NCBI GenBank assembly: GCA_015206785.1
Contig: JADEZQ010000011.1
Span: 543 to 64,542, forward strand
Length of the DNA stretch: 64,000 nucleotides
Reading direction: 5' to 3'
Source of the DNA: Quinella sp. 2Q5
GTDB lineage: Bacteria; Bacillota; Negativicutes; Selenomonadales; Selenomonadaceae
Part shown: positions 1 to 64,000 of the stretch, one piece after another
Position numbering within the stretch: the first letter of the stretch is position 1
How the letters are laid out: each line of letters begins with the position of its first letter
The notes under the pieces: model-generated
The model's input: the letters and a program-made list of their open reading frames with translations, nothing else
The model's database searches: none
What the model was told of the DNA's origin: nothing
Made by a program: the position numbers and the translations under genes

Positions 1-850
1 CGACGTTCCACGGTCGATTGGCGTTGGCGATGTCGCGGCGCAGAAAAAATTCTTGCGCGGACTGCAGACCGGTCTTGAGGGCGTCGAGTTCGGCGAACTG
101 CGTGTTGAGGGCGACGAAGTGAGCTGCGCCGTAATCGAACGAGTAGAAGTAGCCGCGGAAATTTTTTGCGCCGTTATCGGGCAGAGCGAACTGCTCAAGG
201 TAGCCCGTCGGCAGAGCATTGAACCAATCGACGCCGTAGCATTCGTGGTTGCCCATCACCGGCGCGAACGTCCGCCCCGACAAAATTTTTGTCGCCGCAA
301 GATGCCACGCACGCCATTGATAATCCGCCTGCCCGTTGTCGACCAAATCACCGATGACGGTCACGAGCTCGGCTTCGGGAAAAATTTCGGCGGCAATGTC
401 AGCGGTGCGTTGCCAGACCTCGTAGCGTTCGCATTGGCTGTCGGCGAAGATGAGCATTTGGAACGCGCCGTCGCCCGCCGTCAACAGCTTCTGCCACGAC
501 GTCGCGCGTGTGCCCGCCGTGATTCGGAACCTGTAGAGACTTGCGGGCTTTAGATTCGTCAGCGTGCACGAGCAGATTGAATTGCGTTGAGTGACCGCCG
601 CGAAGTGAGCTGACTCTTCGCCGACGAGTTGCCATTCCACTTGCGAAGGCTCTTCCGACGACCACATCAGCGTTCGCGAAGTGCGGCTGTCGCGCGTGAT
701 GACCTGCCGCAAAAATTTCACCGACGTGAGCGGCTGATAACCGTCCTGCGGCGTGTGCAGTTCGTCGAGCCTTGACGCTTCGGCTAAACTTGGGAAGTAG
801 GCACCGAGCCCCAGCGCGAGCAAAATTTTTATGAACCAGCGTCGATTCAT
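1..850 (-). CDS. Secreted metallophosphoesterase (calcineurin-like), 3' end runs off the window
   Basis: Absent from the ORF track because it is open at the window edge. My minus-strand translation from ATG 850-848 gives MNRRWFIKILLALGLGAYFPSLA (signal peptide), then LIFADSQ, VIGDLVDNG and GNHE (metallophosphatase motifs). I checked 241-850 codon by codon and found no stop; 1-240 was read by eye only. Listed ORFs 53-553(+) and 399-911(-) are other frames of the same DNA. Confidence 0.7.
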   Translation of the reverse strand, partial: MNRRWFIKILLALGLGAYFPSLAEASRLDELHTPQDGYQPLTSVKFLRQVITRDSRTSRTLMWSSEEPSQVEWQLVGEESAHFAAVTQRNSICSCTLTNLKPASLYRFRITAGTRATSWQKLLTAGDGAFQMLIFADSQCERYEVWQRTADIAAEIFPEAELVTVIGDLVDNGQADYQWRAWHLAATKILSGRTFAPVMGNHECYGVDWFNALPTGYLEQFALPDNGAKNFRGYFYSFDYGAAHFVALNTQFAELDALKTGLQSAQEFFLRRDIANANRPWNV

Positions 851-1251
851 CAGCCGAGACCTTTGACGAGCCGCGCGAAAAATTTTTCGGGCAGACGACA
901 GATTTTCCCATCGCGAGTGAAGACGTTGGTCGACGAGCCGTCCGCCAAAATTTTTTCGTCGCCGCGCTTGCGAATGACGTAGCGGAACTTCATCTTGGCG
1001 CGCGTGAGAGCTTCGGCGGTCGTTTCGATTTCGATTTCGTCGTCGAACTTGGCGGGCGCATGAAATTTCGCACCGATCTCGACAATCGGGAAGACAATGC
1101 CGTCGTCCATCATCTCGGTGAGCGTCAGATTCAACGCCCGCAAAAATTCCACGCGACCCGTCTCGAACCAGCGGATATAGTTGGCGTGATGCACGACGCC
1201 CATCGTGTCCGTGTCGAAAAATTTTACGCGGTGCAAAGTCGTCACTGTCAT
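850..1251 (-). CDS. Acyl-CoA thioesterase, 4HBT/YbgC family
   Basis: 133 aa. VKFFDTDTMGVVHHANYIRWFETGRVEFL is the hot-dog thioesterase N-terminal signature. Its stop overlaps the next gene's ATG by 1 nt (TGATG). Confidence 0.8.
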   Translation of the reverse strand: MTVTTLHRVKFFDTDTMGVVHHANYIRWFETGRVEFLRALNLTLTEMMDDGIVFPIVEIGAKFHAPAKFDDEIEIETTAEALTRAKMKFRYVIRKRGDEKILADGSSTNVFTRDGKICRLPEKFFARLVKGLG

Positions 1252-1336
1252 CGCGTCACCTCCTCAACAAAACTATATCACAAACGCCGCCGCCTGTGCT
1301 ATAATTGCGCGGACAAAATTTTTGGGGGTGACGGGC

Positions 1337-2155
1337 GTGCTGTATCTGGTCGCCACGCCGATTGGCAACTTGGAAGACATGACCTTTCGCGCGATTCGTG
1401 TCCTGCGCGAAGCCGATTTGATTGCCGCCGAAGACACGCGCCGCACGCGAAAACTTTTGACGCACTTCGACATTCACACGCCGCTGATTCGTTTCGACGA
1501 GAACTGCTCCGCCGCCGTTGCCGAAAAAATTTTGCCGCGGCTCATCGCCGGCGAGACCGTTGCCGTCGTCAGCGACGCGGGGCTGCCCGCCATCAGCGAC
1601 CCCGGCGCGGATTTGGTTCGCGTGGCAATCGACGCGGGCGTCGCCGTCTGTCCGGTGCCCGGTGCCAACGCCGCCTTGAGCGCGCTGATTTGTTCGGGGC
1701 TTGATACATCGCGCTTCATGTTCGCCGGATTCTTGCCGCGTGCAAAAAAAAATCGCCGTGACCTTCTGCAACGACTCTCAACCATCACCGCGACCATCAT
1801 CTTCTACGAGGCACCGCATCGCCTGAAAAATTTTTTGGCGGAACTGGTTGACGCCTTCGGTGACAGACGCGCCGTCCTTGCCCGCGAACTCACCAAGCTC
1901 CACGAAGAATTTCTGCGCGGCACGTTGAGCGAGCTTGCCGAAAAAATTTCCGAGCCCCGCGGCGAATTCGTCATCGTCGTTGAAGGCGCAACGTCCATCA
2001 AAATTTCCGAGCCGACCGAAGACATCGCCACCGTCGTCGAAAAATTCATCGCGGACGGTCTCGACAAGAAGTCTGCCATGCGCGAGGCGGCAAAACTTTT
2101 CAACGTGAGCCGCCGCGAAATTTATAACGCACTAATCAGGGAGGAGACCCAATGA
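1337..2155 (+). CDS. rsmI: 16S rRNA (cytidine1402-2'-O)-methyltransferase
   Basis: LYLVATPIGNLEDMTFRAIRVL and tetrapyrrole-methylase-like fold motifs. GTG at 1337 follows GGGGGTGA. The listed ORF begins at 1205, but the upstream part looks non-coding (a TATAAT at about 1300). The stop overlaps the metG ATG (ATGA). Confidence 0.85.
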   Translation: MLYLVATPIGNLEDMTFRAIRVLREADLIAAEDTRRTRKLLTHFDIHTPLIRFDENCSAAVAEKILPRLIAGETVAVVSDAGLPAISDPGADLVRVAIDAGVAVCPVPGANAALSALICSGLDTSRFMFAGFLPRAKKNRRDLLQRLSTITATIIFYEAPHRLKNFLAELVDAFGDRRAVLARELTKLHEEFLRGTLSELAEKISEPRGEFVIVVEGATSIKISEPTEDIATVVEKFIADGLDKKSAMREAAKLFNVSRREIYNALIREETQ

Positions 2156-12963: not shown

Positions 12964-13833
12964 ATGGCGGAAAAAAATTTTTGTCTGCGACCAAAATATC
13001 TCGACGGCTTCAAATGCGACGGCGCGGCGTGCGGGGCTTTGTGCTGTCGGAATGCGTGGAGAATCGCCGTGGACGCGGCAACCTACCAAAAATATTTGCG
13101 GCTCGGTCACGAAGTCACGCGGCACCTGCGCGCTGATGAGTCGGGCGAAAAATATTTCATCGTGCATTCCGACGCTTGCCCCTTCCTGACGGCGGACAAC
13201 ATGTGCGGCTTGCAACGGGCTCACGGCGAAGATTATCTGTCGCCCGTGTGCGACGGCTATCCGCGAATCGTCACGCGCTTCGAAAATTTTTTGGAGGTCG
13301 CGCTCTCGTTGACGTGCCCAATCGCCGCCCGCCTCGTGCTGTTGCAGACCGAGCCGCTCGTGTTCGAGCTGACGGAGCCATCGGAAAAAATTTTGCGCCG
13401 CGAAGCCAACACCACCTTGCAGGGCGTGCCGCGCGACCTGGCGCCGACAATGGTCGAGGTTCAGCTGGCAATGGTCGAAATTCTGCAGACGCGGCGGCTG
13501 ACACTCCACGAACGATTCGCACGGCTGAAAGACTTTTTGGCACCCGACGCCCCGTTGACGACCGAGAGTCTGCCGAAAAAATCATTGCCCGCCGAATTCG
13601 CGACGGTCGCCGAAAATTTTCTGGTCAACGAAATCTTCCTGAACGTGTGGCCATTCCGACTGGACGCCACTGTCGCAGAAAACTTCCGAGCGTTCGCGGC
13701 AGCGTACAAAATTTTCGAGCGTCAAACACTCACCGCGCGGACAGTCGACGAGCTGTTGACGGCGGCGGGCAAAGTCAGCCGCCTAATCGATCACGACGAA
13801 GACTATCTGCAACGACAACTCGTCACCCGTTGA
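12964..13833 (+). CDS. Cysteine-cluster protein, FliB (flagellin lysine-N-methylase)/YkgJ-like
   Basis: N-terminal FKCDGAACGALCCRNAWRIAVD and a later ACPFL, NMCGL pattern typical of the CxxCxxCC zinc/iron-chelating family. The last 7 codons and the stop lie inside the interspersed repeat. Confidence 0.55.
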   Translation: MAEKNFCLRPKYLDGFKCDGAACGALCCRNAWRIAVDAATYQKYLRLGHEVTRHLRADESGEKYFIVHSDACPFLTADNMCGLQRAHGEDYLSPVCDGYPRIVTRFENFLEVALSLTCPIAARLVLLQTEPLVFELTEPSEKILRREANTTLQGVPRDLAPTMVEVQLAMVEILQTRRLTLHERFARLKDFLAPDAPLTTESLPKKSLPAEFATVAENFLVNEIFLNVWPFRLDATVAENFRAFAAAYKIFERQTLTARTVDELLTAAGKVSRLIDHDEDYLQRQLVTR

Positions 13834-14575: not shown

Positions 14576-14604
14576 TTGAAAAAATTTTCGCTGCGTGATA
14601 CAAT
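14576..14604 (+). promoter_or_regulatory. Sigma-70-type promoter for the polyol-phosphate glycopolymer locus
   Basis: TTGAAA, 17 nt, TACAAT, with TG at the extended -10 position. The A/T palindrome AAAAAATTTT overlaps the -35 and the spacer. Confidence 0.55.
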
Positions 14605-18238: not shown

Positions 18239-18292
18239 CTGCCATCACAGGAGGTGACAAGCGGCAGAAATTTTTTCTTGCCGCGAATTTTT

Positions 18293-19012: not shown

Positions 19013-19021
19013 GGTGATGAC

Positions 19022-20074: not shown

Positions 20075-20086
20075 GGAGTTGTCGGC

Positions 20087-21214
20087 GTGAAAGACACGAT
20101 TGAACACACGATTGACCGCATGCTCCTCCGGCAGAACGAACTGCTTCAAACCCAGAACGAGTTGCTTCAACAGCTCATCGCGCAAAAAAATTCCGCGCCC
20201 GAAAAAAATTTGCTGCCCGACGAAAAAATTTTTGTCGACGATCTTTGGCGCGACGAGATTCGCGGCGGCTACGTCGTCACCGCGCAGAGAAAGCGGCTCT
20301 GGAATATTCAGCTCAACCTCATCGCCGAAGTCGAACGCATCTGCACCAAGCACAATATCCGCTGGTTTGCTTATGGCGGAACTCTGCTCGGCGCGGCTCG
20401 GCACAAAGGCTTTATCCCCTGGGACGACGACGTCGATATCTCAATGTTGCGCCCCGACTACGAGAAGTTTAAGCGCGTCATCGTCGAGGAGATTAAGCCG
20501 CCGTATTTCGTTGACGCCTGGTACGATTACCGTTTGGAAGACGAAGAGCCCGCCGTCGACAAAAACTTTCAGCAATTCGTCAAGCACGACCAACGCACTA
20601 AGCACCCGACGTGGTGGCCGTTCTGGCCGATAATCAAGCTCAAAGATTCGCGCACGACCTTCGTCCAATATCTCGACCGCCCGCATGTCCATCAGGGCAT
20701 TTGGATTGACATCTTCCCGTTCGACCCCGTGCCGCCATTCGCAACCCGCAATCAAGCAAAGATATTTGAAGTGGAACGGGAGATGATGCACGCAATGGCT
20801 CGCCCCGACACGATACGCAAGGCGTTGGCGGAAAACAAACCGTTGCTCGTCAATCGCGACGACCTGAAGAAATTCCTGGCTCTGCCGCACAGAACGAAGG
20901 CGCGGGTAATTGACGACTACTTCGCGAAGAATTTCCACCCCGACACCGTCAACGTCGGGCAGGTGCGCGGGCACACGCTGGCTAAGCACCCGCAGTATTA
21001 CGCGCTGAAAAATTTTTCGCAGACCGTTTATCTGCCGTTCGAGCTGATGAAAATTCCCGCGCCCGTCGGTTGGGAAGATTGCCTCAAGTCGCAATACGGC
21101 AATTGGCGCAAACCCGTCTTCGCCAAGCCGCACGCCAAGGTTTTTAGCGCGGACTTCTCCTATCGAGATTTTTTCAGCAAGGCGGACATCGGCAAGATCG
21201 ACAAGTTCCAATGA
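20087..21214 (+). CDS. LicD-family phosphotransferase (paralog 2)
   Basis: GTLLGAARHKGFIPWDDDVDISM. Clearly paralogous to 17072-18238 along the full length, including the QNELL N-terminal repeat. Confidence 0.8.
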   Translation: MKDTIEHTIDRMLLRQNELLQTQNELLQQLIAQKNSAPEKNLLPDEKIFVDDLWRDEIRGGYVVTAQRKRLWNIQLNLIAEVERICTKHNIRWFAYGGTLLGAARHKGFIPWDDDVDISMLRPDYEKFKRVIVEEIKPPYFVDAWYDYRLEDEEPAVDKNFQQFVKHDQRTKHPTWWPFWPIIKLKDSRTTFVQYLDRPHVHQGIWIDIFPFDPVPPFATRNQAKIFEVEREMMHAMARPDTIRKALAENKPLLVNRDDLKKFLALPHRTKARVIDDYFAKNFHPDTVNVGQVRGHTLAKHPQYYALKNFSQTVYLPFELMKIPAPVGWEDCLKSQYGNWRKPVFAKPHAKVFSADFSYRDFFSKADIGKIDKFQ

Positions 21215-21221
21215 GGAGGGT

Positions 21222-23890: not shown

Positions 23891-24867
23891 TGACGCGGCG
23901 GCTGAAGTTCTCAATCGGCGACAATCAGCGCGGCTACAAATCGGTTGAGCTGACCATTGACGGCGGGCAGGTCTCGCGAAAAATTTTGCGCGGCGGTCTG
24001 TCGGCTGTCGGCAAAAAAATTTTCCCCGCCGAAGAAATTTCCGACGAACATCTTGCGAAGTTGGATGCGCTGGAAATTTTTGCGTGGGAAAAAAATTATT
24101 CTTCGGCGACGCGTGGCGTGCAGTGGCAACTGACTTTCAGCGACGGCGACGAAATTTATCGCGGGCGCGGCGACGGAGCCTTCCCCGAAAATTTTGAGCG
24201 GCTCGCGGATTGGCTCGACGAATTTTTTCCTGAGCTTGAGTTCATCGACAGGCAAAGGCTTGAGCGCGTGACGATTGATTACATCGGCGAGAGGCTGACC
24301 GTTGACCGCCGCGACAAGACGTTGACGCTCGACAAGCCCAAATCCAATCACGTTTACGGCATTGACGACGACAAAAAAATTTTCATCGCCGCGCAGAAAT
24401 TGTTCGACGCCGTGGACATCGCGGACGCCGTGGAATTTTCTTGCATGTGCGCAACGTTTGAACTGGTTCGCCACGACGGGACGGTTGACGCCTTCGCCGC
24501 GCCGTACACCGAAAATTTTTTGCCGGGGCTGACGAAATTCCTTGAAGCCGTTCGCACGTTCATAGACGACTTGACCGCCGACATCCTCGCGCCGCCGCAG
24601 TCTGCCGAAATTTCTGCGCGACGCGGTCGGCTCATTCTGTGCAAGGTGCAATTCCCCGGCAGCTACAAGCACTACACTTACAGCACCGACGACGAGACCT
24701 TGAGCGCGGGCGACATCGTGGACGTTCCCGTCGGCCGCAACAACGACGTGACCTGGGCGCGGCTGGTCGAGATCGGTTACTTCGACGAGTACGACACGCC
24801 CATTCCACGCGACAAGATAAAAAAAATCATCGGCAAGCACGTCGCCGACGAATGGGAAAACGTTTGA
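23890..24867 (+). CDS. Hypothetical protein, 325 aa
   Basis: ATG overlaps the SIMPL stop (TGATG). The C-terminal roughly 70 aa (YKHYTYSTDDETLSAGDIVDVPVGRNNDVTWARLVEI) looks like a small beta-barrel module. I recognise no family. Confidence 0.5.
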   Translation: MTRRLKFSIGDNQRGYKSVELTIDGGQVSRKILRGGLSAVGKKIFPAEEISDEHLAKLDALEIFAWEKNYSSATRGVQWQLTFSDGDEIYRGRGDGAFPENFERLADWLDEFFPELEFIDRQRLERVTIDYIGERLTVDRRDKTLTLDKPKSNHVYGIDDDKKIFIAAQKLFDAVDIADAVEFSCMCATFELVRHDGTVDAFAAPYTENFLPGLTKFLEAVRTFIDDLTADILAPPQSAEISARRGRLILCKVQFPGSYKHYTYSTDDETLSAGDIVDVPVGRNNDVTWARLVEIGYFDEYDTPIPRDKIKKIIGKHVADEWENV

Positions 24868-25635
24868 TCATTTGATTGCGCCAAGCTTCTGCAGAGCCGC
24901 GCGGGCAGCCTCTTGCTCGGCGGCTTGTTTGCTTTTGCCGACGCCGCGCCCGAAAATTTTTCGGTCAATCATTGCCGCGGCCTCGAACGTCGGCATGTGC
25001 GGCGGACCGCTCGAACTGATGATGGAGTAGGTGAGCTTCTGCGGCGGTCGTTGCTGAATGATTTCCTGCAGCTTGCTCTTGTAGTCCTTCGGAATGCCGG
25101 TAACCCTGACGTGCTCGAACTCGGCAGCGAACTTGTCGAAGACGAAATCGCGGGCAACTTCCCAGCCGTGCTCCAGATAGATGACGCCGATAAGAGATTC
25201 CATTGCGTCTTCAAGATTGGAAGCCATGCCGCGCGTGGAAGAGAATTCGGTCGGTCCAACCTGCAACAGTTCGTCCAAGCCGAGTTCCTTTGCCAGCCGC
25301 GTCAATGTCGATTGGCGCACGACGCTCGAACGCATTTTGGTCAGCTCGCCCTCAGTGAAGGTCGGGAAGTGTTCGAACATGTATGTTGCCGACGCCAGCC
25401 CAAGCACCGCGTCGCCCAAAAATTCCGGTCGCTCGTTGTACTTGAGCATCGGTTCGAATTCTTTGGCGTAGGACTTGTGAGTCAGTGCCTGGTTCAAAAG
25501 TTCCAGCCGCGAAAATTTCAGCCCAAGCCGCGCCGAAAATTTCTCCAGCAGTTTGCGCCGCTTGTCGGACAAAACTTCTTCGACGGTGACGCCTTCGCCT
25601 TCGGGCATCTCAAAAATTTTCTCGTCAATCGTCAA
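24868..25635 (-). CDS. rnc: Ribonuclease III
   Basis: ERPEFLGDAVLGL catalytic signature and a C-terminal dsRBD (GPPHMPTF, GVGKSKQAAEQEAARAAL). TTG start at 25635 lies 8 nt after GGAGGTG. Confidence 0.9.
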   Translation of the reverse strand: MTIDEKIFEMPEGEGVTVEEVLSDKRRKLLEKFSARLGLKFSRLELLNQALTHKSYAKEFEPMLKYNERPEFLGDAVLGLASATYMFEHFPTFTEGELTKMRSSVVRQSTLTRLAKELGLDELLQVGPTEFSSTRGMASNLEDAMESLIGVIYLEHGWEVARDFVFDKFAAEFEHVRVTGIPKDYKSKLQEIIQQRPPQKLTYSIISSSGPPHMPTFEAAAMIDRKIFGRGVGKSKQAAEQEAARAALQKLGAIK

Positions 25636-25870
25636 AAATAGTCACCTCCGCAAAATTTATGTGAGCTTCGGTCGCGGCGATTGGCTTCGGCTGTCGTCAC
25701 GTCATTCGCGAAATTGGATGCAACGTCACGTTGCTTCTCGTCAATCGTCAAAAATAGTCACCCCCGCAAAATTCATGTGAGCTTCGGTCGCGGCGATTGG
25801 CTTCGGCTGTCGTAACGTCATTCGCGAAATTGGATGCAACGTCACGTTGCTTTTCGTCAATCGCCAAATC
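25623..25870 (-). repeat. Tandem direct repeat, 116-bp unit in about 2.1 copies, duplicating the rnc RBS, start codon and first 6 codons
   Basis: CGTCAATCG recurs at 25623, 25739 and 25855. The units are near-identical and each contains the palindrome GCAACGTCACGTTGC. Confidence 0.9.
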
Positions 25871-25872
25871 GT

Positions 25873-35932: not shown

Positions 35933-36775
35933 ATGAAAAAATTTTTTCTGCTGACGATTATGCTGGCGGTGCTGACGTTGACGGCTCACGTTGCCGCGCA
36001 GGGCATCGCTTCCGGCGGCAGAGGCTCAACCGAAGTCGCCGCGGTCGAAGACATGAAGCTCACCGCCATCAAACGCGCACTGGCTCACCTGACTGCACGC
36101 AACGACGATCCCGCTTCGCCCTATCAACAGTTGCTGGCGGGCTACAGGAATTTCGTCGGCTCCGTCAAAATTTCCAAGCGCGGCAAAAATTCTCGCGGCG
36201 TCGTCGTCACCGGCACCGTCGAGATCAAATACGACGAGCTGCGTGCTCAATTCGGTCGGCTCATCAAAAATTCTCACGGCTCCGACATCACCCGCGAGGT
36301 CTACGTTTTCGTTCGCGTCGTCGGCGACATCACCGAGGCTCAACGTCGCGCGGCGGAAGAAATCATTCTGCAACGATATATGACGCGGCTGACGGAAAAT
36401 CGTTTCGTCGTGGCTGATGCGGACGAAGTCATCGGCGAACTTAGTCAGACGCGTGCAATGACCTTCGACGAGTTCGTCGCGTTCGTCGGGCGCAAAACCA
36501 TCGAGAACCCCGCCATCTGCACGGCAATCGTCGGCGAGCTGAAGCTCTCGCCCGTTGCCGCGGACGCCGACGGATTCACCGCCGCCTGCACCATGACGAT
36601 TCGCGCGGTGGATTGTCTGCGCGGCTTCATGACGATTGACGCGAGCGACGGCAGCGAAGTCCTGCGCATGAAAACTTTCGAGCGCATAGAAAATTTCCTC
36701 TGCGAGAAGGCGGCGGTTGCCTCCTCCAAGACCGTGACCGACAGCCTCGTTCGTCATTGGGCGGGGCAAATTTAG
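35933..36775 (+). CDS. Secreted hypothetical protein C (280 aa), weakly LPP20-like
   Basis: Signal peptide MKKFFLLTIMLAVLTLTAHVAA|QG. The mature N-terminus GRGSTEVAAVEDMKLTAIKRALAHL resembles the same module as protein B. Confidence 0.5.
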   Translation: MKKFFLLTIMLAVLTLTAHVAAQGIASGGRGSTEVAAVEDMKLTAIKRALAHLTARNDDPASPYQQLLAGYRNFVGSVKISKRGKNSRGVVVTGTVEIKYDELRAQFGRLIKNSHGSDITREVYVFVRVVGDITEAQRRAAEEIILQRYMTRLTENRFVVADADEVIGELSQTRAMTFDEFVAFVGRKTIENPAICTAIVGELKLSPVAADADGFTAACTMTIRAVDCLRGFMTIDASDGSEVLRMKTFERIENFLCEKAAVASSKTVTDSLVRHWAGQI

Positions 36776-42315: not shown

Positions 42316-42355
42316 CCGCCGCCAAAAAAAATCCCGCCGCCGTCGACGGGTGATG

Positions 42356-43009
42356 TCAGCCGCGGCAAATGCGGTCAAGGGCGTCAATCTCTGCGGCGAG
42401 CGCGGAAAATTTTTCTGACGAACGGGCGCAGGAGCTTCGGCTCATTTCGTCGCGGACACGCTCAAGTTTTTTCAGCCGCCGCAAAAAAAATTCCCGCCGC
42501 AACGGAGATGACTCCCGCTTGAAAATTTTTGGCGCAGTCGGAACTTTGACGGCACTGATGATTTCGTAGATGATGCCCGCGGCTTCGGCAATGTCTTCGT
42601 CGTCAATCGCCCAGCCCATAGTCCGAAGATGGTCGCGCGTTTCATTGACGGCGTTCATCGGCTGAAGGATCAGTTGCCGCGCAGATTGCAAGACGTCCGG
42701 CGCGGCGTCGAGTATCCGACAGATGAGCGCGCCGCCCATGCCCGCAATGCAAATCGTGTCGACTTCGCCCGCCTTCAAGACCTGCAAGCCGTCGCCGAGC
42801 CTAACGTCAATCGCGCCGTCCAAACCCGCCGCCGAAATATTTGAGCGCAACGCGTCGAATGGTCCGCGATTTTTTTCCGTGGCGATGACTTTGGTCGCGC
42901 GTCCGCCGTCAATCAGCGCAATGGACAGTTGCCCGTGGTCGGCACCGATATCGGCGACGCGTTCGAACATCACAAAGCTCATCACCGATTGAATCCGCCC
43001 GTCAAGCAT
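42356..43009 (-). CDS. trmK: tRNA (adenine22-N1)-methyltransferase
   Basis: VADIGADHGQLSIAL and ICIAGMGG motifs. The start MLDGRIQ overlaps the scfB stop by 8 nt. A T8 run downstream at about 42325-42352 probably terminates the operon. Confidence 0.8.
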   Translation of the reverse strand: MLDGRIQSVMSFVMFERVADIGADHGQLSIALIDGGRATKVIATEKNRGPFDALRSNISAAGLDGAIDVRLGDGLQVLKAGEVDTICIAGMGGALICRILDAAPDVLQSARQLILQPMNAVNETRDHLRTMGWAIDDEDIAEAAGIIYEIISAVKVPTAPKIFKRESSPLRREFFLRRLKKLERVRDEMSRSSCARSSEKFSALAAEIDALDRICRG

Positions 43010-46031: not shown

Positions 46032-46043
46032 CCAAAAACCTCC

Positions 46044-47648
46044 TCATGTGCCGAAGGAAATGTCGGCCTCGAACATGCGATTCCACGGGAAGCTCACGCG
46101 CAGACGGTCGTTGCCGGTGAAGGCGGGCAAGTTCCCCTGCGCGAAGTATTCCAGTAGTTCGGCGCAAGTAGCGGCGGCGGCAGCGCGTTTGCCGTCCAAA
46201 ACCTCGTAGCGTCCGTCGCCGTCAATCCAATTCAACTGCGCGGCACCAATCTGCCTGACGTTCGCCTGATAAGCCCAGTCGTCCAGATATCGGCGCAACA
46301 GCAGTTCGTTTATGCGGTTGTCGTTCATGCGTGCGGTCAATATTCCCGCCGCCAGCGCAAAGCCCGAAGAGTTCGTCGGCGTATTCCAGCCCGCGTAGGC
46401 ACTCAGCTTGAAGAGCAAACCGCGTTGGCGAAGCTGAATCATCAGCGCGTTGTCGGAGCCGTTTGCGAAGGCGATATCCGCCACGATAACTTTGCGGCCG
46501 TCGGCGACGTGATTCTGAACGATATCGGCGAAGGCGAAGGTTCCGCCGCGCGGCGTGCCGTTGTTGAGGGCGTCGTCCGCCTCGAAGGTCATGCCGTCGG
46601 GGTTGGTGTTGACGGTCAGCACAAAGTCCGCGTCCGTCGCCTTGTCGGTTGAAGTCGCGCCCGTCGCATTGATTGCCGCACGAATCGATTCGTCAATCGT
46701 CTCGTCGGAATAGGAGGGAATGGTCTCGCCGCCGCGCCCCCAATTATATTCGACGAAAACTTTCGGGCTCCGGTTGGTGTTGATGTTGACTGCCCGCGCC
46801 AAAAGCACCAGCCCCGCCTCGTCAATGCCGGCCGTCGTCAGATATCGATTGGCACCGATGCCGCGCCCGTATTCCAGGAGCTTGCGACCCTCGTTGTGCG
46901 TCTGTGAATATGGTGCGTTGTCGTCGCGGCCGATAAGAAGATAATCAAACGTCTTGTCGCGGGCATAGTCGATGAGTTTTTTGTTGGCGTCGAAATTTTT
47001 TTCGCGCCGCCCCATCCAGTCGGCAATCGCCCGTTCGGGAATGAGCCGTTGCAGAAAGTTGAACTCCTTAATCTCGCGCGGGCTCAGACCGACGAGTTCT
47101 TGCTTGTCCATCAGCTCCGTCAGGCGGAAGATATTCGTGCCGTAGTAGCGATAATAATCCGGTTCCTCGTAGCCCGAAGCCAGACCCGTGCGCGGCGTGC
47201 GCATCACCGAGCCGAAGACATACAGCGGAAGTTTTTTGTGGCGGCGGCGAAATTCGTTGAACAAATCTGCGCGGGCAAGGACGGTGTCGCCGTCATAATC
47301 GTGTTTGCGCGAGCCGATGAGACTTCCGTACAGCAGGGCGTCCGACGAGATAACCGCGGCGGTCAAATCTTTGGTGGCGTTCTTGTTCAGCCAGTCCCAA
47401 AGCAAATCGGGATCGCCGCTGTCTTGGCGGTTGCCCAAAAGATTTTCGGGCGGGGCAACGATTTCAACGCCCGCCTTCTCTAAAATCTCGATGGTCTGCT
47501 TGTTGACGACGGGTCGGCTGTCGTGGGGAATGTACAAAATTTTTTCGCGGACGATCTTCTTGCGTGCCGAGCAGTTGCCCGTTAGCACGAGCAGAACTGT
47601 CAGCACGCAGACCGTCACGCGCAACATCAATTGCGTAATCAAAATCAT
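46044..47648 (-). CDS. DUF4127-like secreted/membrane-anchored protein
   Basis: N-terminal hydrophobic segment, then KILYIPHDSRPV, which I associate with DUF4127. The family assignment is from memory only. Confidence 0.55.
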   Translation of the reverse strand: MILITQLMLRVTVCVLTVLLVLTGNCSARKKIVREKILYIPHDSRPVVNKQTIEILEKAGVEIVAPPENLLGNRQDSGDPDLLWDWLNKNATKDLTAAVISSDALLYGSLIGSRKHDYDGDTVLARADLFNEFRRRHKKLPLYVFGSVMRTPRTGLASGYEEPDYYRYYGTNIFRLTELMDKQELVGLSPREIKEFNFLQRLIPERAIADWMGRREKNFDANKKLIDYARDKTFDYLLIGRDDNAPYSQTHNEGRKLLEYGRGIGANRYLTTAGIDEAGLVLLARAVNINTNRSPKVFVEYNWGRGGETIPSYSDETIDESIRAAINATGATSTDKATDADFVLTVNTNPDGMTFEADDALNNGTPRGGTFAFADIVQNHVADGRKVIVADIAFANGSDNALMIQLRQRGLLFKLSAYAGWNTPTNSSGFALAAGILTARMNDNRINELLLRRYLDDWAYQANVRQIGAAQLNWIDGDGRYEVLDGKRAAAAATCAELLEYFAQGNLPAFTGNDRLRVSFPWNRMFEADISFGT

Positions 47649-48328
47649 CTCCTCTTCTTGGCGGCGCGAATGTCACCCCAAAGGTCGCGTGCCTTGTCGA
47701 AAATCCGCGGTTCTCGTTCACGGACAGACTGGTCGCCAATCAGCCGCGAAAGATAGCTTGTGGTCTTCTGCATGTCACCGAGCCGATAGTAAATCGCCGC
47801 GACGAGATAGACCACGGCGTTGTCGGTCAGCTCACCGATGGGGAAGTGTTCCTTGGCAAGAGCCGCCTCGTAAAATTCAGCCGCCTTCGCAAGAAATTCG
47901 TTCTCTTGGTTGACGTCGCCTGCCTCGCGATAGATCCACGCCAATTGGTGCGCATACTTCGCCTTCTTGGACGCCTTGCCGTTGATGATGTCCAAAAACT
48001 TCAACGCCAGACGGAATGCGGTGGAAGCGTTGCCGAGCGTTCTCTCCTCGGCGAAGGGGATTTTGATGTTCTTGCCGATGAGTGCGCCGCGAAGAATCGC
48101 CAGGTGTCGGTCGGGGATCTTGGTGGTGAAGGTCGTCTCGTCCGCCGCAAAGCCGCAGTGTTCGCAGACCCAAACGGTGTACAGATACGGGCAGAAATCT
48201 TTGTAATGGGTGCAGGCGTCCTCGTCGCGGCTGACGACGGGAATGCGCGAACGAACCTTGACCACGCGCGTCATTTGTTCGCAGATGGGGCAGGGTTTCT
48301 CGACGACGAATGTGTTATCAACTGCCAT
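47645..48328 (-). CDS. DUF2225-like zinc-ribbon/TPR-like protein
   Basis: CPICEQ followed by CEHCGF as a zinc ribbon, then a helical repeat region. Has a 4-nt overlap with the downstream gene. Confidence 0.6.
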   Translation of the reverse strand: MAVDNTFVVEKPCPICEQMTRVVKVRSRIPVVSRDEDACTHYKDFCPYLYTVWVCEHCGFAADETTFTTKIPDRHLAILRGALIGKNIKIPFAEERTLGNASTAFRLALKFLDIINGKASKKAKYAHQLAWIYREAGDVNQENEFLAKAAEFYEAALAKEHFPIGELTDNAVVYLVAAIYYRLGDMQKTTSYLSRLIGDQSVREREPRIFDKARDLWGDIRAAKKRR

Positions 48329-48332
48329 AACG

Positions 48333-51300: not shown

Positions 51301-51809
51301 TCGTTCCAGCTTGCATGAAAGACCGCGCCGGTTTTCTCGACGATCTCGTTGCCGTCGCGATAAAATCTGTCGGGGAAGATTTGATACATCACCGCGTGCT
51401 TGAACCAGTCTGGAGTCTTTGCGCCGCGCTGATAGACTGTGATTTGGAAGGCGGGCGGCTGATGGTCATAGAGTTCGCCGACGCCGCCGAGGAGTTCGGG
51501 GTTGTTGCCGTAGTAGTAAGTTCTTCCGCCCGTGACGATGATGAAGTAATACCAGAGCAATCCGCCGCGGTCAGGCATCTTCACGGCGAGCGAGAAAAAT
51601 TTTTCGGCGGACTTGTCGTCGCGCGTTGTGAGCGTCGACCACTTTTCGCCCGCGCCTTCAACCCACGTATGCAACAGCACCTGCTTAATCACGGCTTCGG
51701 TCTTAATGCGAATGCCCAGCCGAACGGTTGAGCCGGCCTCTGCCGCGCCGACAGTCGAGCGGTAGTAAATGTTCTGCGAGTTGTGCAGGACGTCTTTCTT
51801 GTCAATCAT
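48333..51809 (-). CDS. Fusion of a GH13 alpha-amylase-family enzyme with a GH77 4-alpha-glucanotransferase (MalQ)
   Basis: N-terminal roughly 640 aa carries GH13 regions DGVFSHT, GWRLDVIDE, EVWE and LIASHD. C-terminal roughly 500 aa starts RRAGILLHPTSLPSKYGIGD with YSPYQSPSAF (MalQ). Confidence 0.85.
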   Translation of the reverse strand: MIDKKDVLHNSQNIYYRSTVGAAEAGSTVRLGIRIKTEAVIKQVLLHTWVEGAGEKWSTLTTRDDKSAEKFFSLAVKMPDRGGLLWYYFIIVTGGRTYYYGNNPELLGGVGELYDHQPPAFQITVYQRGAKTPDWFKHAVMYQIFPDRFYRDGNEIVEKTGAVFHASWNDDPVYFKDVDTKEIVAYDFFGGNLRGVEKKLDYLKELGISAIYFNPIFESESNHHYDTGDYHKIDPILGTNDDFKHLIDVAKSKGIRIIIDGVFSHTGSNSRYFNRKGAYDTVGAFQSKDSPYYEWYDFRNYPTDYDSWWNFDTLPNVRETTPSYMDFIIRGKDSVLKHWMREGISGWRLDVIDELPAEFSRLFFAELKKIDPEAVMIGEVWEDASNKIAYGVQRQYLCGYEMDSAMNYPLRAHIFDFILGAIDGELCMRRMESLRENYPKENFYAMMNLIASHDIMRPVTIFGEAPYYDQMPAVEQSRFRLDAAAEKLGKARLKMAALWQMTYPGVPCIYYGDEVGMQGFKDPTNRRPYPWGGGDQELLATYKKFIKLRNDKLVLQTGELLPLPSKGDIVAYARVIRNGHDVFGHEADNDVYLVAFNRSRNRSKEVSFDVSDFANGAFVDAFDETDPNKKFPVTRGRVNFKLEPLEGLLLHHVPQQQNYDRRAGILLHPTSLPSKYGIGDIGSEEAFAFVDYLKAAGQSIWQILPLNPVGYGYSPYQSPSAFAGNPMMISIDALIEDGLLNEADVKVPARLAKARLVEFETVDKLKHAALLKAFENFKSRLKTDTKLAEDFKTFCAAQKYWLDDYALFDAIKSKHGGTYWIEWDDQLKKRDKKVLAAWKRELADEILFAEFEQFIFERQWQKLHRYALERGIQIMGDMPIFVSADSADVWANQQEFMLNVDGSPKKVAGVPPDYFSATGQLWGNPQYDWDEMTATKFKWWKLRFKRIYEQVDIVRVDHFRAFESYWSIDGDAKTAVHGEWLKGPGLKFFNEIRKEIGDAQIVAEDLGIITDAVDALREDCGFPGMKVLHFELHFNEHGRIGFVPPENSITYTGTHDNNTTVGWFMEDVDNDSKPTIAALIGADVRRPDDVCKKLIEFAYASNSRFAIVPMQDILKLDSRNRMNTPGTVGTNWGWRLKADYLSEAAAPQLKALCNKYLR

Positions 51810-55444: not shown

Positions 55445-56212
55445 ATGCTGTTCGATTCACACATGCACACGCAAGTTTCCGCCGATTCCGACATGTCGGC
55501 AACTGATGCTCTGGCGCGGGCGGCGGCTCTGAATTTGGGCGTCGTCTTCACGGAGCATTTCGATTACGGCTTCGCCAACGAGGATGGAGAATTTTCCTTC
55601 GACCCCGCGGCGTACATGAGCGGCTACAAAAATTTCCGCGGCTCAAGTTGTCGGCTCGGCGTCGAAGTCGGTCTGCGACCTTGCGCACGAGATGCCAACG
55701 AAAATTTTTTGCGGCAGGCTGATTTCGATTTCGTCATCGGCTCAATTCATCTCGTCGACGGCGTGGATATTTACCTGCCCGAATTTTTTGCCGGCAAAGA
55801 CAAACCCACCGCCTGGCGAAAATATTTTCAGCAGATGGCGGACGAAGCTGCCGTTGCCGATTTCGACGCGCTCGGTCACATCGATTACATCTGCCGCACC
55901 GCGCCATACGTCGACCCCGAAATCGATTACGCCGCCTTCGCCGACGAGATTGATGCCGTGCTGAAAATCGTCGTCGAACGCGGAAAAGTTCTTGAGCTAA
56001 ACACGCGCCGCTTCGTCGACGAGAAGGCCGTCCTTGAGCTGGTGCCCGTCTACGAGAAGTATCGCGCGCTCGGCGGACGCTTCGTCACGCTCGGTTCCGA
56101 CGCCCACACCGTTGCCGCCGTCGGAAAATTTTTTGACCGCGCCGTTGAATTCACCCGCGAACTGAACTTGACGCCCGTCACCTTCTGCGAACGGAGCATG
56201 AAGATTTTTTGA
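55445..56212 (+). CDS. hisK: Histidinol-phosphatase, PHP (HisJ/HisK) family
   Basis: MLFDSHMHTQVSADS start after GAGGAGG, and PHP metal-binding His/Asp pattern (GSDAH). Confidence 0.8.
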   Translation: MLFDSHMHTQVSADSDMSATDALARAAALNLGVVFTEHFDYGFANEDGEFSFDPAAYMSGYKNFRGSSCRLGVEVGLRPCARDANENFLRQADFDFVIGSIHLVDGVDIYLPEFFAGKDKPTAWRKYFQQMADEAAVADFDALGHIDYICRTAPYVDPEIDYAAFADEIDAVLKIVVERGKVLELNTRRFVDEKAVLELVPVYEKYRALGGRFVTLGSDAHTVAAVGKFFDRAVEFTRELNLTPVTFCERSMKIF

Positions 56213-56237
56213 CGGCGAAAAATTTTTCGTGTACAAT
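56209..56237 (+). promoter_or_regulatory. Sigma-70-type promoter for the purine permease
   Basis: TTGACG, 17 nt, TACAAT. The spacer contains GAAAAATTTTTC. Confidence 0.55.
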
Positions 56238-62032: not shown

Positions 62033-62977
62033 TCACGCTATCCCCGAAAGCACCACGAAATAATAAAACGCGGGCGCGGTAAAGAAGATGCTGTCGAACC
62101 TGTCGAGAACGCCGCCGTGCCCGGGCAGGAAGATGCCCGAATCTTTGACGTTGGCGAAACGTTTCAGCACCGACTCAACCAAATCGCCGAGCGTCGCGGC
62201 AATCGCCAAGATGAAACCCGCAACCGCCATCTTCACCAGCGGCAGACCGAAGACAATCGTGCCGACGACAACCGCCGTGAAAATCGTTCCGACGACGGAA
62301 CCGAGGAAGCCTTCGACAGTTTTGCCGGGGCTGATGGACGAGGCTAGCTTGTGCGAACCGAAAGCCGTGCCCACGAAGTATGCGAAGGTGTCGCTTGCCC
62401 ACGTGCAGGCAAACAGCACCCATACCAGCGCACAGCCCGCGTCCACGTTCACGTTCAGGCTAAGGTCAATCGTCGGCAGGAAGCTGAGCAACCCGCCCAA
62501 GTCCAGCTTGTCCAGGAGCGTGGCGTTGTTCGTGGCAATCTCTTTGACGGTGGTGACTGCCTCGCCAGGCTGCGGCTCGTCCGCTAAGAACCGCAGGAAA
62601 ATCAGATGCGCGAACGGCAACCCGATGTACATTATCCCCGCCACGGAAACGCAAGCGTCGGTCGGTCGAGTTGACCCGCGCAGGACAACCGTCAACAGGA
62701 AGATCATCATCATGCTGAGCGTCAACACCGCCAACAGCTCTTCCACGTTGCCCAGCCACGCGCAACATTCAAGCAGTATCAGAGCCAGCGCGCCGAAGAT
62801 GTAAGTCGTCATCACGCCCGCCCGACGAAAGACGCCGGAGTATTCGTGCCAGGCTAACAGCGACAAAAATATCGCCACGCCCGCGAACGGCGCACCGCCG
62901 TATTGAATCACGAACGCGGCAATGGCAATGCCTATAATCCCCGTGATAATTCTAAGAGCCAAAACGTCACTCTCCAT
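62033..62977 (-). CDS. cdsA: Phosphatidate cytidylyltransferase
   Basis: Multi-TM protein with C-terminal PGHGGVLDRFDS signature. The start may be the TTG 15 nt downstream of the listed ATG. Confidence 0.85.
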   Translation of the reverse strand: MESDVLALRIITGIIGIAIAAFVIQYGGAPFAGVAIFLSLLAWHEYSGVFRRAGVMTTYIFGALALILLECCAWLGNVEELLAVLTLSMMMIFLLTVVLRGSTRPTDACVSVAGIMYIGLPFAHLIFLRFLADEPQPGEAVTTVKEIATNNATLLDKLDLGGLLSFLPTIDLSLNVNVDAGCALVWVLFACTWASDTFAYFVGTAFGSHKLASSISPGKTVEGFLGSVVGTIFTAVVVGTIVFGLPLVKMAVAGFILAIAATLGDLVESVLKRFANVKDSGIFLPGHGGVLDRFDSIFFTAPAFYYFVVLSGIA

Positions 62978-63986
62978 TCGGTCGCTGATTCGCGACGAAA
63001 ATTTTCTGTTGAGCTATCAGATCCGTCAGCAACCACGAAATCAACACGCCCTGCCCGTCCGAAGACTTGCCGAAGGTTTCATTGACCGCCGTGTAAATTT
63101 CGTGCAACGGAAGCTGAAGGCTACTGCCGTAGACGCGAGCCATCTTGGTGTGCGCGAAGAATTCCAACACCGCGCAACGATACTGCACGTTTCGGCGGAA
63201 GAACTCAAGCCCACCCATGAAGTCGTCTAAAATTTTTATGCCGCGCACCAGAGGATCAAGCCACAGCGTCAAGGTCTGTCGCGGCGTACGTTCGGTGCGT
63301 AGCGAGGAATTTTCGCTCAGACGCCAGACGTAGACGACGTTGGGCACGCGCAGGAGCCGTCGCGCATGAAAGATCAACGCATAAGTCCAGATGTCGTCTT
63401 CGGAAACTTTGACGTGCGGGAAAAAAATTTCGCGGTCGATGAGCAGGTCGCGGCGGACAAATTTGCTCCAGGTCGCCAAAGTGAATCTCTCCGCAATCAG
63501 CGCACGCACACGTTCGGAAAGGTCGTCGCTCTCCAATGTCGGGGCGGTGACCAAATTTTTATGGGGCGGTGCCGCGATGTAAATCTCGCTCAAATCGGCG
63601 CAGGCCTCGAAGTGTCGTTCGATGTAGACGACGTCGGCGTCGAAATTTTTTGCGGGCGCGTACAGCTCCTCAAGCGCGGTGGGCGTGATCAAATCGTCGG
63701 CGTCCACGAAGAAAACGTATTCGCCGCGGGAAAGTTTGATGCCCTTGTTGCGCGGCAGACCGCCGTTGCCGCTGTTGGTCGGCATGGAAAAAATTTTCAG
63801 CCGCCCGCCAAAACGTTCGCGGTAGCTTTCGACGACGGCGACGGAGTTGTCGGTTGAGCAGTCGTCCACGACGATGACTTCGAAATTTTTCAGCGACTGT
63901 GCCAACAAACTTTCGAGGGCGTCGGCGACGTAACGAGCGGCGTTGTACAGCGGGATAATCACGGAAACTGCGGGAGGGGTCGACAT
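62967..63986 (-). CDS. Family 2 glycosyltransferase
   Basis: VSVIIPLYNAARYVADALESLLAQSLKNFEVIVVDDCSTDNS and DADD motifs. Confidence 0.8.
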   Translation of the reverse strand: MSTPPAVSVIIPLYNAARYVADALESLLAQSLKNFEVIVVDDCSTDNSVAVVESYRERFGGRLKIFSMPTNSGNGGLPRNKGIKLSRGEYVFFVDADDLITPTALEELYAPAKNFDADVVYIERHFEACADLSEIYIAAPPHKNLVTAPTLESDDLSERVRALIAERFTLATWSKFVRRDLLIDREIFFPHVKVSEDDIWTYALIFHARRLLRVPNVVYVWRLSENSSLRTERTPRQTLTLWLDPLVRGIKILDDFMGGLEFFRRNVQYRCAVLEFFAHTKMARVYGSSLQLPLHEIYTAVNETFGKSSDGQGVLISWLLTDLIAQQKIFVANQRPNGE

Positions 63987-64000
63987 GTGAACACCTCAAT

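Follow-up and report, generated by a model that had tools for sequence, protein, structure and literature searches.

A 19.45-bp wave of A-then-T tracts in Quinella DNA points to a probable architecture signal

The window analysed here, a stretch of 64,000 nucleotides (64 kb), comes from one contig of a metagenome-assembled genome, Quinella sp. 2Q5, of a giant, uncultured rumen bacterium. Its genes and intergenic DNA are studded with tracts in which a run of A passes directly into a run of T, against a GC content of 57%. Tracts were collected as AnTm with arms of at least 3 and a total of at least 8 (116 tracts in the window), or more loosely with arms of at least 2 and a total of at least 6 (219 tracts). 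The main features are the following.

1..64000, no strand: AT/GC wave with a period of 19.4-19.5 bp and the tracts as its crests (periodogram, autocorrelation)
1524..1533, + strand: A6T4 tract in rsmI (GAA AAA ATT TTG), position kept in relatives' loci L081, L084 and L087
1826..1836, + strand: A5T6 tract in rsmI (CTG AAA AAT TTT TTG), kept in L081, L084, L087 and L001; L082 carries AAAACGTTTTT at the equivalent position
14576..14604, + strand: promoter-like TTGAAA, 17 nt, TACAAT with a TG extension (from sequence); an A6T4 tract overlaps the first hexamer and the spacer
20184..20233, no strand: three-tract array, A7T2, A7T3 and A6T5, with A/T junctions 18 and 20 bp apart, in the segment of strongest local periodicity of the window (20013-20246)
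23970..24203, no strand: phased array within a single gene (23890-24867), power 58 at 19.45 bp, tracts at 23979, 24013, 24035, 24074, 24089, 24152 and 24188
25489..25722, no strand: phased array over the 5′ end of the RNase III gene and upstream DNA (local periodic power)
35936..35947, + strand: A6T6 tract coding the N-terminus M-K-K-F-F, an example from a gene 5′ end
42331..42564, no strand: phased array with tracts at 42406, 42467-42492 and 42522 (local periodic power)
46993..47002, no strand: A3T7 tract in a DUF4127 gene; among 10 relatives compared, 9 keep an AnTm tract here
51595..51604, no strand: A5T5 tract in the start region of a GlgX/MalQ-like gene; A3-4T5 in 6 of 6 relatives compared
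56209..56237, + strand: promoter-like TTGACG, 17 nt, TACAAT, with an A5T5 tract in the spacer (from sequence)

The top-ranked octamer of the window is AAAATTTT. An earlier sequence-only reading had estimated about 75-80 copies and no TTTTAAAA; the exact counts on the + strand are 79 (1.23 per kb) and 0. The reading put the chance expectation at about 0.2; base composition gives 0.3 per strand, and first- and third-order Markov models expect about 2.8 and 8.8 copies. On the same strand AAATTT occurs 156 times versus once for TTTAAA, and AATT 370 times versus 44 for TTAA. Similar abundance of other A/T octamers, which the reading had named as evidence against its claim, is not seen; pure AnTm words account for 329 of the 508 occurrences of A/T-only octamers in the window, from which 179 of the 256 possible A/T-only octamers are absent. 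The G/C flanks it described are present, with G or C preceding 110 and following 106 of the 116 tracts, and its three examples lie in place: GACAAAATTTTTGTC at 279..293, GCGAAAAATTTTTCGG at 875..890 and GGAAAAAAATTTTTGT at 12969..12984, the last coding M-A-E-K-N-F downstream of a ribosome-binding-site-like AAGGAGG. Its two promoters are matched by promoter-like sites at exactly 14576-14604 and 56209-56237, each with a tract in the spacer.

The tracts form a class of variable members. Arms range over A3-8 and T3-8, and total length has a hump at 8-10 bp (n=17, 23, 28, 35, 32, 14 and 7 for lengths 6, 7, 8, 9, 10, 11 and 12). An A-run is followed by T with a probability that climbs from 0.33 for a run of 1 to 0.62 for 4 and 0.89 for 6. 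Across the whole clade TpA is scarce (relative abundance 0.35-0.55) and CpG is frequent (1.5-1.8), but TpA avoidance alone is insufficient, because the A-then-T polarity is kept across a G/C interruption: AAA[G/C]TTT occurs 36 times versus 3 for TTT[G/C]AAA, and the ratio is 16 to 2 when the interruption is two G/C bases long. On both strands together, AAAATTTT occurs 158 times and its heptamers predict 152.3, a maximal-order Markov ratio of 1.04; formally, then, its frequency does not exceed the heptamer prediction, the outcome that the sequence-only reading had set against itself. The excess is thus a property of the AnTm class rather than of an octamer word. It accrues gradually across k=4-7, not at a single word length, maximal-order ratios drop below 1 above 10 bp, and neither GAAAATTTTC nor CGAAAATTTTCG is in excess.

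These counts bear directly on the iterated palindromic word, of the DUS or HIP1 type, that the earlier reading had proposed. A DNA uptake sequence, or a HIP1-like palindrome with a methyltransferase or short-patch repair acting at an AATT-containing site, would account for a lineage-restricted palindrome at about 1.2 per kb, but there is no fixed word to recognize, and the flanks of the window tracts yielded neither conserved nor complementary sequence. About 88% of the tracts lie in coding DNA, not in terminator pairs. With the phasing described next, and a wave that persists without the tracts, we regard this alternative as highly improbable; the word as originally proposed is not supported.

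The phasing of the tracts is a new finding, not part of the sequence-only reading. Periodogram and autocorrelation of the 64-kb window show a sharp peak at 19.2-19.6 bp, 5.9 times the mean for an AAA/TTT indicator and 3.3 times for an AT-versus-GC indicator, and no 10-11 bp peak was found in the window spectra. The best-fit period is 19.40-19.45 bp, and phase holds to about 450 bp; the wave is coherent over about 300-450 bp, some 15-20 repeats. Around 115 tract junctions A/T content swings between 0.50 and 0.37, still doing so past 100 bp; the autocorrelation is negative at lag 10, placing a G/C trough 10 bp from each crest, and in neighbouring crests A precedes T by about 3 bp. The peak is present in each third of the window, and 39 of 49 genes have more power on the peak than off it, whereas only about 24% of 234-bp windows rise above the off-peak 95th percentile, coherence being limited to a few hundred base pairs. 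Peak power is 7.0 versus 3.5±0.33 in synonymous shuffles. With all tracts of at least 5 bp masked it is still 6.1 against a baseline of 3.5, so the wave survives the removal of the words themselves. It also remains when tandem repeats are masked, which rules them out as its cause. For 19.45-bp phasing an uptake signal supplies no reason.

The constraint acts on the DNA duplex and is dyad-symmetric. Coding tests, which rest on gene calls from a crude caller, found 68 AAAATTTT in coding sequence versus 10.4±3.0 in 200 synonymous shuffles of the window, a 6.5-fold excess. Codon pairs are coupled: for KF, AAA-TTT occurs 30 times versus 8 for AAG-TTT, and for KN, AAA-AAT 34 times versus 5 for AAA-AAC, with KK as AAA-AAG and FK as TTT-AAA near absent (1 each). 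The earlier reading had argued from the use of three reading frames that the constraint lies on DNA rather than on a peptide; the frames hold 23, 50 and 29 tracts, and the codon-pair coupling and synonymous-shuffle excess uphold the argument. Shuffling leaves 10.4 AAAATTTT versus 0.2 TTTTAAAA, so part of the signal resides in amino-acid order. As 19.45 bp is 6.5 codons, the wave reaches the proteins, where an indicator of K/N/I/F/Y/M residues peaks at 6.5-6.6 residues. Its value is 1.75 for the proteins of the window, 1.2-1.3 for those of the clade and 1.0 for other Selenomonadaceae. Orthologous families in other Selenomonadaceae lack the 6.5-residue period; the protein pattern therefore derives from the DNA pattern, and the constraint is strong enough to set synonymous codons, a protein period and how neighbouring amino acids are ordered. 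Neither this imprint nor the preferred total tract length was part of the sequence-only reading.

Could the tracts nonetheless be a by-product of coding or translation, with AT-rich starts, M-K-K-F-type N-termini, a preference for AAA/TTT/AAT/ATT and codon-pair bias generating AAAATTTT? Gene starts do collect them: where the earlier reading saw about a dozen, 14 tracts fall at -5..+36 nt from a called start codon versus 4.1 expected, a 3.4-fold enrichment over the first ~12 codons, and the first gene-length decile holds 20 versus about 9 in each other. The residue left after shuffling also agrees with such an origin. The 6.5-fold synonymous excess does not, nor do the three frames with near-equal mean sense-strand arms (4.8 A, 4.6 T), the higher density of intergenic than coding DNA (3.97 versus 1.69 per kb) or the lack of the residue period in orthologous families elsewhere. 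We consider it very unlikely.

The feature belongs to the Quinella clade, in line with the lineage-specificity that the earlier reading had suggested, and other Selenomonadaceae of the same GC lack it. Confinement of the enrichment to the window, an outcome that the reading had named as counting against it, is not seen; 270 kb of independent, pooled Quinella-clade loci carry it, and their spectrum peaks at 19.5 bp. In Quinella sp. 1Q7 (L081) there are 29 A4T4 and 0 T4A4, and the peak again lies at 19.5 bp. L085 has tracts with only a weak peak at 19.5-20 bp, and L082, L083 and L102 show a 10.25-bp peak in place of 19.5 bp. The signal is missing from 2.2 Mb of other Selenomonadaceae and Firmicutes of equal GC, where two control sets (0.87 Mb and 1.39 Mb) gave flat spectra and about 0 A4T4. 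The constraint is kept at orthologous sites: relatives with 70-80% nucleotide identity retain 50%-70% of the tracts, and in-tract synonymous third positions are kept in 176 of 206 cases (85%) where the same codons outside tracts predict 65%, a comparison that is pseudo-replicated over ~12 related genomes and may be confounded by local protein conservation.

A non-functional mutational footprint, in which tracts accumulate and nothing reads them, is the strongest of the alternatives. Under strong G/C pressure and extreme TpA loss, neighbour-dependent mutation or repair would spare A/T inside existing A- or T-runs. The gradual excess over k=4-7, the clade-wide dinucleotide bias and the roughly similar tract density (0.2-2.9 per kb) in relatives of 42%-57% GC all fit, and long tracts are depleted in genes with stronger codon bias (Spearman -0.55), which fits either weak selection or mutational pressure opposed by protein constraint. 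Yet context-dependent mutation alone gives no 19.45-bp line coherent over 15-20 repeats, and it leaves unexplained the 8-10 bp hump, a polarity across G/C interruptions in which no TpA is involved, and the better in-tract synonymous retention; long coding homopolymer runs are, moreover, frameshift-prone and normally selected against. The footprint could be periodic if a periodically bound protein shielded the DNA. The repair footprint among the roles first suggested, like a mutational one, would need a template with a 19.45-bp repeat; the shielded version requires a protein with that repeat and so merges with the architectural explanation. Overall we think a footprint improbable.

The wave points to an undescribed DNA-architecture signal, not an uptake word. 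At about even confidence, we propose that Quinella DNA carries a lineage-specific structural or architectural code, with the AAAATTTT sites as its crests; among the three roles first suggested, a nucleoid-protein or architecture site is favoured by the 19.45-bp phasing and dyad polarity. A-then-T blocks of ~8-10 bp alternate with G/C-rich blocks and repeat every 19.4-19.5 bp. A-tracts without a TpA step are rigid, with a narrow minor groove and an A4T4-type bend, properties that the tract blocks should share. The wave may be the lattice on which an abundant nucleoid protein prefers to bind, a symmetric (dimeric) one that reads the minor groove and would cover about two helical turns with each unit, singly or as a filament; alternatively, the DNA itself may be selected for its intrinsic shape, a gently superhelical path. 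Since 19.45 bp is 1.85 turns of 10.5-bp B-DNA, successive bends rotate by about -53 degrees, and as the number of turns is not integral, a one-face array or classical in-phase curvature is not a direct consequence. No binding protein was identified within the 64 kb or the relatives' loci.

Several known systems share part of this description. Plasmid iterons are local, sequence-specific direct repeats spaced ~21-22 bp; like other sites spaced by two turns, they set ~20-bp units in register, the natural footprint of a two-turn protein, whereas the Quinella signal is a genome-wide compositional wave whose units lack sequence identity. DUS, the DNA uptake sequence of Neisseria, USS of Pasteurellaceae and HIP1, the cyanobacterial GCGATCGC palindrome, are also lineage-specific, at ~1 per kb and within genes in several frames, but they are fixed words exceeding their own sub-words, unlike a variable phased tract class with a maximal-order ratio of ~1. 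Phased An/Tn runs across hundreds of base pairs recall the PATCs in germline genes of Caenorhabditis elegans and the WW/SS nucleosome code. Those are eukaryotic, intronic or nucleosomal, with a 10-bp period, and a DNA-wrapping protein reads them or has evolved along with them. Quinella is a bacterium with its 19.45-bp signal mostly in coding DNA, and we know of no histone-like reader for it. In Hagerman-type DNA, A4T4 is bent in comparison with T4A4, and macroscopic curvature requires ~10-bp repeats. The preference for AnTn, the virtual absence of TnAn and the lack of a TpA step are shared, but Quinella has a G/C trough at 10 bp and a repeat of 1.85 helical turns.

Our search of the genome-periodicity literature found no report of a ~20 bp period. 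Helically phased A-tracts at 10-11 bp are described in prokaryotes by Herzel, Trifonov, Mrazek and Tolstorukov (for example PMC3431218, PMC3372288, PMC7537859). As in Quinella, short A/T runs are spaced genome-wide and in coding DNA, in a lineage-dependent manner, over at least 100 bp, and are read as a structural or packaging signal. In contrast, the Quinella period is 19.4-19.5 bp, in a window with no 10-11 bp line; its crests are dyad AnTm blocks of one helical turn in 57% GC DNA, and its amplitude reshapes codon pairs and protein sequence.

The octamer AAAATTTT occurs 79 times on the plus strand of the window (1.23/kb), at a G+C content of 56.6%, and its counterpart of opposite polarity, TTTTAAAA, occurs 0 times, which bears out the over-representation that a sequence-only reading had picked up by manual scan. 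It is the top-ranking octamer of all in the window, against expectations per strand of 0.3 from base composition, ~2.8 from a first-order Markov model and ~8.8 from a third-order one. Shorter words on the same strand have the same polarity (AAATTT 156 versus TTTAAA 1, AATT 370 versus TTAA 44). Pure AnTm words, in which a run of A passes directly into a run of T, make up 329 of the 508 A/T-only octamer occurrences, and 179 of the 256 possible A/T-only octamers are absent from the window. The sites cited in the sequence-only reading are present where it placed them, the promoter-like ones lying exactly at 14576–14604 and 56209–56237, and its description of their context holds as well: among 116 tracts with arms of at least 3 and a total length of at least 8, a G or C flanks 110 on the 5′ side and 106 on the 3′ side (mostly G on the 5′ side and C on the 3′ side, with ‘CG’ typical of both), all three reading frames are used, and 14 tracts fall within the first ~12 codons of called genes, versus 4.1 expected. 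A by-product of coding or translation would account for this 5′-end enrichment but leaves everything beyond it unexplained, and we consider that origin very improbable. No tRNA or tmRNA genes and no Rfam families were found in the window, so RNA genes do not account for the tracts.

The excess belongs to the AnTm tract class and not to the octamer as a word. Counted on both strands, AAAATTTT occurs 158 times where its own heptamers predict 152.3, so the idea of an iterated octamer in excess of its constituents does not survive. Maximal-order Markov ratios are modest (AAAA 1.27, AATT 1.14, AAATT 1.48, AAATTT 1.21, AAAATTT 1.09, AAAATTTT 1.04) and fall below 1 past 10 bp; the ratio is 0.86 for A5T5 and 0.69 for GAAAATTTTC. 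Since the octamer is predicted by its heptamers, the unit is A(n)T(m) with variable arms, which range from A3–8 to T3–8. Total length, for arms of at least 3, is humped rather than declining, with 17, 23, 28, 35, 32, 14 and 7 tracts at 6–12 bp; the correlation between these arms is only −0.08, with no arm compensation, so a constrained total length is read from the histogram and not from the arms. The chance that an A-run passes into T grows with its length, from 0.33 at one A to 0.62 at A4, 0.89 at A6 and 1.0 at A8, and homopolymer runs of at least 6 are scarce (4 of pure A and 6 of pure T, versus 201 AnTm). The relative abundance of TpA in the window is 0.39, but the A-then-T polarity goes beyond TpA avoidance: it is seen across one interrupting G/C base (AAA-S-TTT 36 versus TTT-S-AAA 3) and across two (16 versus 2). 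No conserved or mutually complementary flank sequence was found among the tracts, and an extended palindrome or cruciform was discarded on the lack of complementarity in the flanks (z ≤0.1 at all 8 positions). Identity with the CodY box (AATTTTCWGAAAATT, 15-bp consensus) was also dropped, with 0 matches in the window at up to 2 mismatches.

Coding tests were made on 59 genes from a simple codon-usage caller, covering 94.6% of the window. Inside coding DNA lie 102 of the 116 tracts, at a density of 1.69/kb, versus 3.97/kb in intergenic DNA. Synonymous codon shuffles within genes leave 10.4±3.0 AAAATTTT versus 68 observed, in agreement with the earlier proposal that the constraint lies on the DNA rather than on a peptide motif. 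Phe is encoded by TTT in 30 of 48 cases following AAA and in only 8 of 33 following AAG, Lys-Asn is written AAA-AAT 34 times versus AAA-AAC 5 times, and the codon pairs AAA-AAG and TTT-AAA each occur once in the genes of the window. Amino-acid order is also affected, because the shuffles keep the polarity (10.4 AAAATTTT versus 0.2 TTTTAAAA) and the dipeptides KF, KI and NF are about twice as frequent as FK, IK and FN.

The autocorrelation of AAA/TTT peaks at lags of ~19, 38, 58, 77 and 97 bp and beyond. A periodogram averaged over segments shows a single sharp peak at 19.5 bp (19.2–19.6 on fine mapping); relative to the mean, its height is 5.9-fold with the AAA/TTT indicator and 3.3-fold with an AT-versus-GC one. 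The phase is most stable at 19.40–19.45 bp, with an envelope that has lost about two thirds of its height at 450 bp. The window spectrum has its sole peak at 19.25–19.5 bp and none at 10–11.5 bp (0.76 times the median), and neither a 39-bp (13-codon) sub-harmonic nor a 9.7-bp harmonic is present in it. Peak power is 7.0 versus 3.5±0.33 (maximum 4.9) over 100 synonymous shuffles, and the peak is found in every third of the window and in 39 of 49 genes. Tandem repeats were rejected as its source, as they form only tiny arrays whose masking leaves the peak intact. Around 115 tract junctions, the A/T content is 0.50 at 18, 37, 58, 78, 97 and 116 bp and 0.37 between these positions. At the neighbouring crests, the A/T-rich phases of this wave, A runs ahead of T by ~3 bp, and the whole is therefore a dyad-symmetric lattice at the DNA level, with a period of 19.45 bp. 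The tracts are not the sole source of the peak: with all AnTm tracts of at least 5 bp masked it stands at 6.1 versus a baseline of 3.5 (8.7 unmasked), so an AT/GC wave lies beneath the tracts, which mark its crests. The troughs are CpG-rich, and the crests are TpA-free A-then-T blocks of about one helical turn. A-tracts of this kind are known to be rigid, with a narrow minor groove, and to bend in the manner of A4T4, which T4A4 does not. In the encoded proteins, an indicator built on K, N, I, F, Y and M, whose codons are A/T-rich, has its peak at 6.5–6.6 residues; the value is 1.75 for the window, 1.2–1.3 for the clade and 1.0 for other Selenomonadaceae.

The MetG encoded in the window is 100% identical to that of Quinella sp. 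2Q5, a metagenome-assembled genome; Quinella is the uncultured ‘Quin’s oval’ of the rumen. A locus of Quinella sp. 1Q7 (L081, 52% GC; GCA_015206805.1) carries 29 A4T4 and 0 T4A4 with a peak at 19.5 bp, loci L087, L086, L084, L091, L094, L099 and L100 are similar to it, and Quinella sp. 3Q1 (L085; GCA_015206825.1) has the same pattern, weakly. Independent clade DNA totalling 270 kb gives, when pooled, a 19.5-bp peak (3.15 versus a baseline of ~2.0), whereas the spectra of other Selenomonadaceae (0.87 Mb) and of other Firmicutes (1.39 Mb) are flat. The density of AAAATTTT is 0.2–2.9/kb in clade loci and zero in other Selenomonadaceae of the same GC (for example, L112–L118, 59–60% GC). A control set comprises 80 loci from a scan of a genome collection with MetG, with no Quinella genome among the matches listed. 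As the Quinella-clade loci are positive and the controls negative, the trait is clade-specific; the enrichment, which the sequence-only reading suggested could be lineage-specific, is replicated in independent clade genomes beyond the window.

Loci L082 (1–21524), L083 (1–12127) and L102 (1–8407), with a GC of 44–45% and MetG 83% identical, have AnTm tracts with a 10.25-bp peak (2.4–3.5 times the median) and no 19.5-bp peak, which suggests that the period differs between sublineages. CpG is strongly over-represented clade-wide (1.51 in the window, 1.4–1.8 in the relatives L081, L082 and L084–L087) and TpA is strongly depleted across the clade (relative abundance 0.35–0.78); CC/GG and AG/CT have a relative abundance of ~0.72, and the commonest tetramer is CGCG. 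A sheep-rumen contig, Ga0310697_10024876 (L088, 1–5465), is 99.07% identical to positions 45373–50837 of the window, with 51 substitutions, 47 of which swap A/T with G/C, and 0 indels; it probably represents a second strain of the window’s species.

In orthologues at 70–80% nucleotide identity, 50–70% of the window tracts are still AnTm. Inside tracts, the third codon position is kept, with the amino acid unchanged, in 176 of 206 cases (85%), where the same codons (AAA, AAT, ATT, GAA, TTT) off tracts predict 65% retention; the comparison is pseudo-replicated over ~12 related genomes, and the conservation evidence is therefore supportive, not decisive. This synonymous conservation is left unexplained if the tracts are a purely mutational footprint, as are the phasing, the length hump and the polarity across G/C interruptions. 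A mutational origin does account for an excess that grows gradually as words lengthen and for the extreme dinucleotide biases, but overall we judge it unlikely, and a version in which a shielding protein templates the mutations merges into the main, architectural hypothesis.

Long tracts become scarcer as the codon bias of genes increases (Spearman −0.55, p = 4e-5), examples being the propionate-pathway genes (37.5–42.2 kb) and a GlgX/MalQ-like gene. These and other features of the window are as follows.

37559–42230, minus strand: propionate-pathway cluster with very few long AnTm tracts; biotin carrier, carboxyltransferase subunit (Carboxyl_trans, E = 2e-200), nitroreductase, succinate CoA-transferase and a glyoxalase-fold protein that is likely methylmalonyl-CoA epimerase
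48333–51809, minus strand: GlgX/MalQ-like fusion of 1158 residues, N-terminal alpha-amylase/GlgX-like, C-terminal 4-alpha-glucanotransferase (MalQ)
29699–31567, minus strand: TrpF–TrpB fusion of 622 residues
14635–17049, plus strand: 804-residue ORF, coding score 252 (strong)
17072–28647: cell-surface polysaccharide locus with two LicD, epimerase, Asn-synthase-like, Wzy_C, Caps_synth glycosyltransferase and ABC ATPase
25619–25868: intergenic 116-bp repeat, 2.2 copies, 96% identity

The promoter-like site at 14576–14604 lies directly upstream of the 804-residue ORF, which has no Pfam or NCBIfam match and is strongly periodic at 19.45 bp (ratio of on- to off-peak power 2.55). The polysaccharide locus has the densest tracts of the window (13 in 24–28 kb) and a slightly lower GC of 53–55%. 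The 116-bp repeat sits between an RNase III gene (24868–25635, minus strand) and a Wzy_C/O-antigen-ligase-like gene (25873–27075, minus strand).

Whether the wave is an architectural signal of Quinella DNA is, in our estimate, an even call; among the roles put forward in the sequence-only reading, architecture is favoured and an uptake signal finds no support. The lattice may be selected through an abundant symmetric protein or filament that would bind with a unit at about every second turn of the helix, although no such protein was found in the window or in the loci of relatives; or selection may instead act on the DNA path itself. At 10.5 bp per turn, the 19.45-bp spacing amounts to 1.85 turns, so that successive bends rotate by about −53°, and such rotations would trace a left-handed superhelix of ~130 bp per turn. 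The protein-based reading can be put more specifically, if only tentatively: Quinella and its closest relatives may pack the chromosome with an undescribed, abundant dyad-symmetric nucleoid protein or filament on a 19.45-bp lattice, with which the genome would have co-evolved a positioning code of one-turn AnTm and CpG-rich blocks, overriding synonymous choice and imposing a 6.5-residue periodicity on the proteome. If true, this would be a bacterial counterpart of the nucleosome-positioning code, with another geometry.

For a GC-rich genome to carry a sharp, clade-specific 19.45-bp line on AnTm blocks of one helical turn is unusual, and codon pairs and amino-acid order are visibly rewritten, an unusually strong case of selection for DNA structure over coding sequence. 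We consider the signal to be of high interest because it is sharp, replicated in independent genomes, clade-restricted and shapes protein sequences. The prediction that follows for this iconic, uncultured bacterium of the rumen is that its DNA has an unusual intrinsic shape or else is bound by a nucleoid protein whose lattice spans two turns, and specific fragments (for example, 23970–24203 and 20013–20246) and clade boundaries make it testable. The signature offers a cheap binning marker for Quinella-clade contigs in rumen metagenomes and calls for caution with codon-usage and gene-prediction models on these genomes.

The density of ~1/kb recalls DNA uptake sequences (DUS/USS), but these have frequent inverted terminator pairs and no helical phasing, whereas the tracts here are mostly coding and phased. 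A fixed word that exceeds its own sub-words defines both uptake sequences and HIP1-like palindromes, and both readings, floated earlier, fail on it: the arms vary around no fixed 9–12-bp core word, and the octamer has no large excess over the maximal-order Markov expectation. The RecA filament has a pitch of ~18.6 bp per turn; it was rejected, as the measured period is 19.40–19.45 bp and the filament gives no rationale for an AT/GC pattern. We know of no Fis-, IHF/HU- or Lrp-type site geometry with a 10-bp AnTm centre and 19.45-bp spacing. The Quinella genome paper (PMC9585023) mentions neither motif, periodicity nor codon usage, and a non-exhaustive literature search returned no report of a genome-wide ~20-bp period or of AnTn over-representation in Selenomonadaceae. 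With A4T4-type curved DNA the tracts share the AnTn polarity and the virtual exclusion of TnAn, but the macroscopic curvature and anomalous gel mobility of such DNA need in-phase repeats at ~10 bp, and here the G/C trough 10 bp from each crest excludes classical in-phase curvature. Accounts of periodicity in bacterial sequences have until now placed it at the helical repeat of 10–11 bp, and its function is under debate. A-tracts phased at 10–11 bp are a familiar feature of prokaryotic genomes (PMC3431218, PMC3372288, PMC7537859). The Quinella lattice resembles that periodicity in a spacing of A/T runs that extends over at least 100 bp, here out to ~450 bp, but differs in its period, which in the window is 19.45 bp and not the helical repeat.
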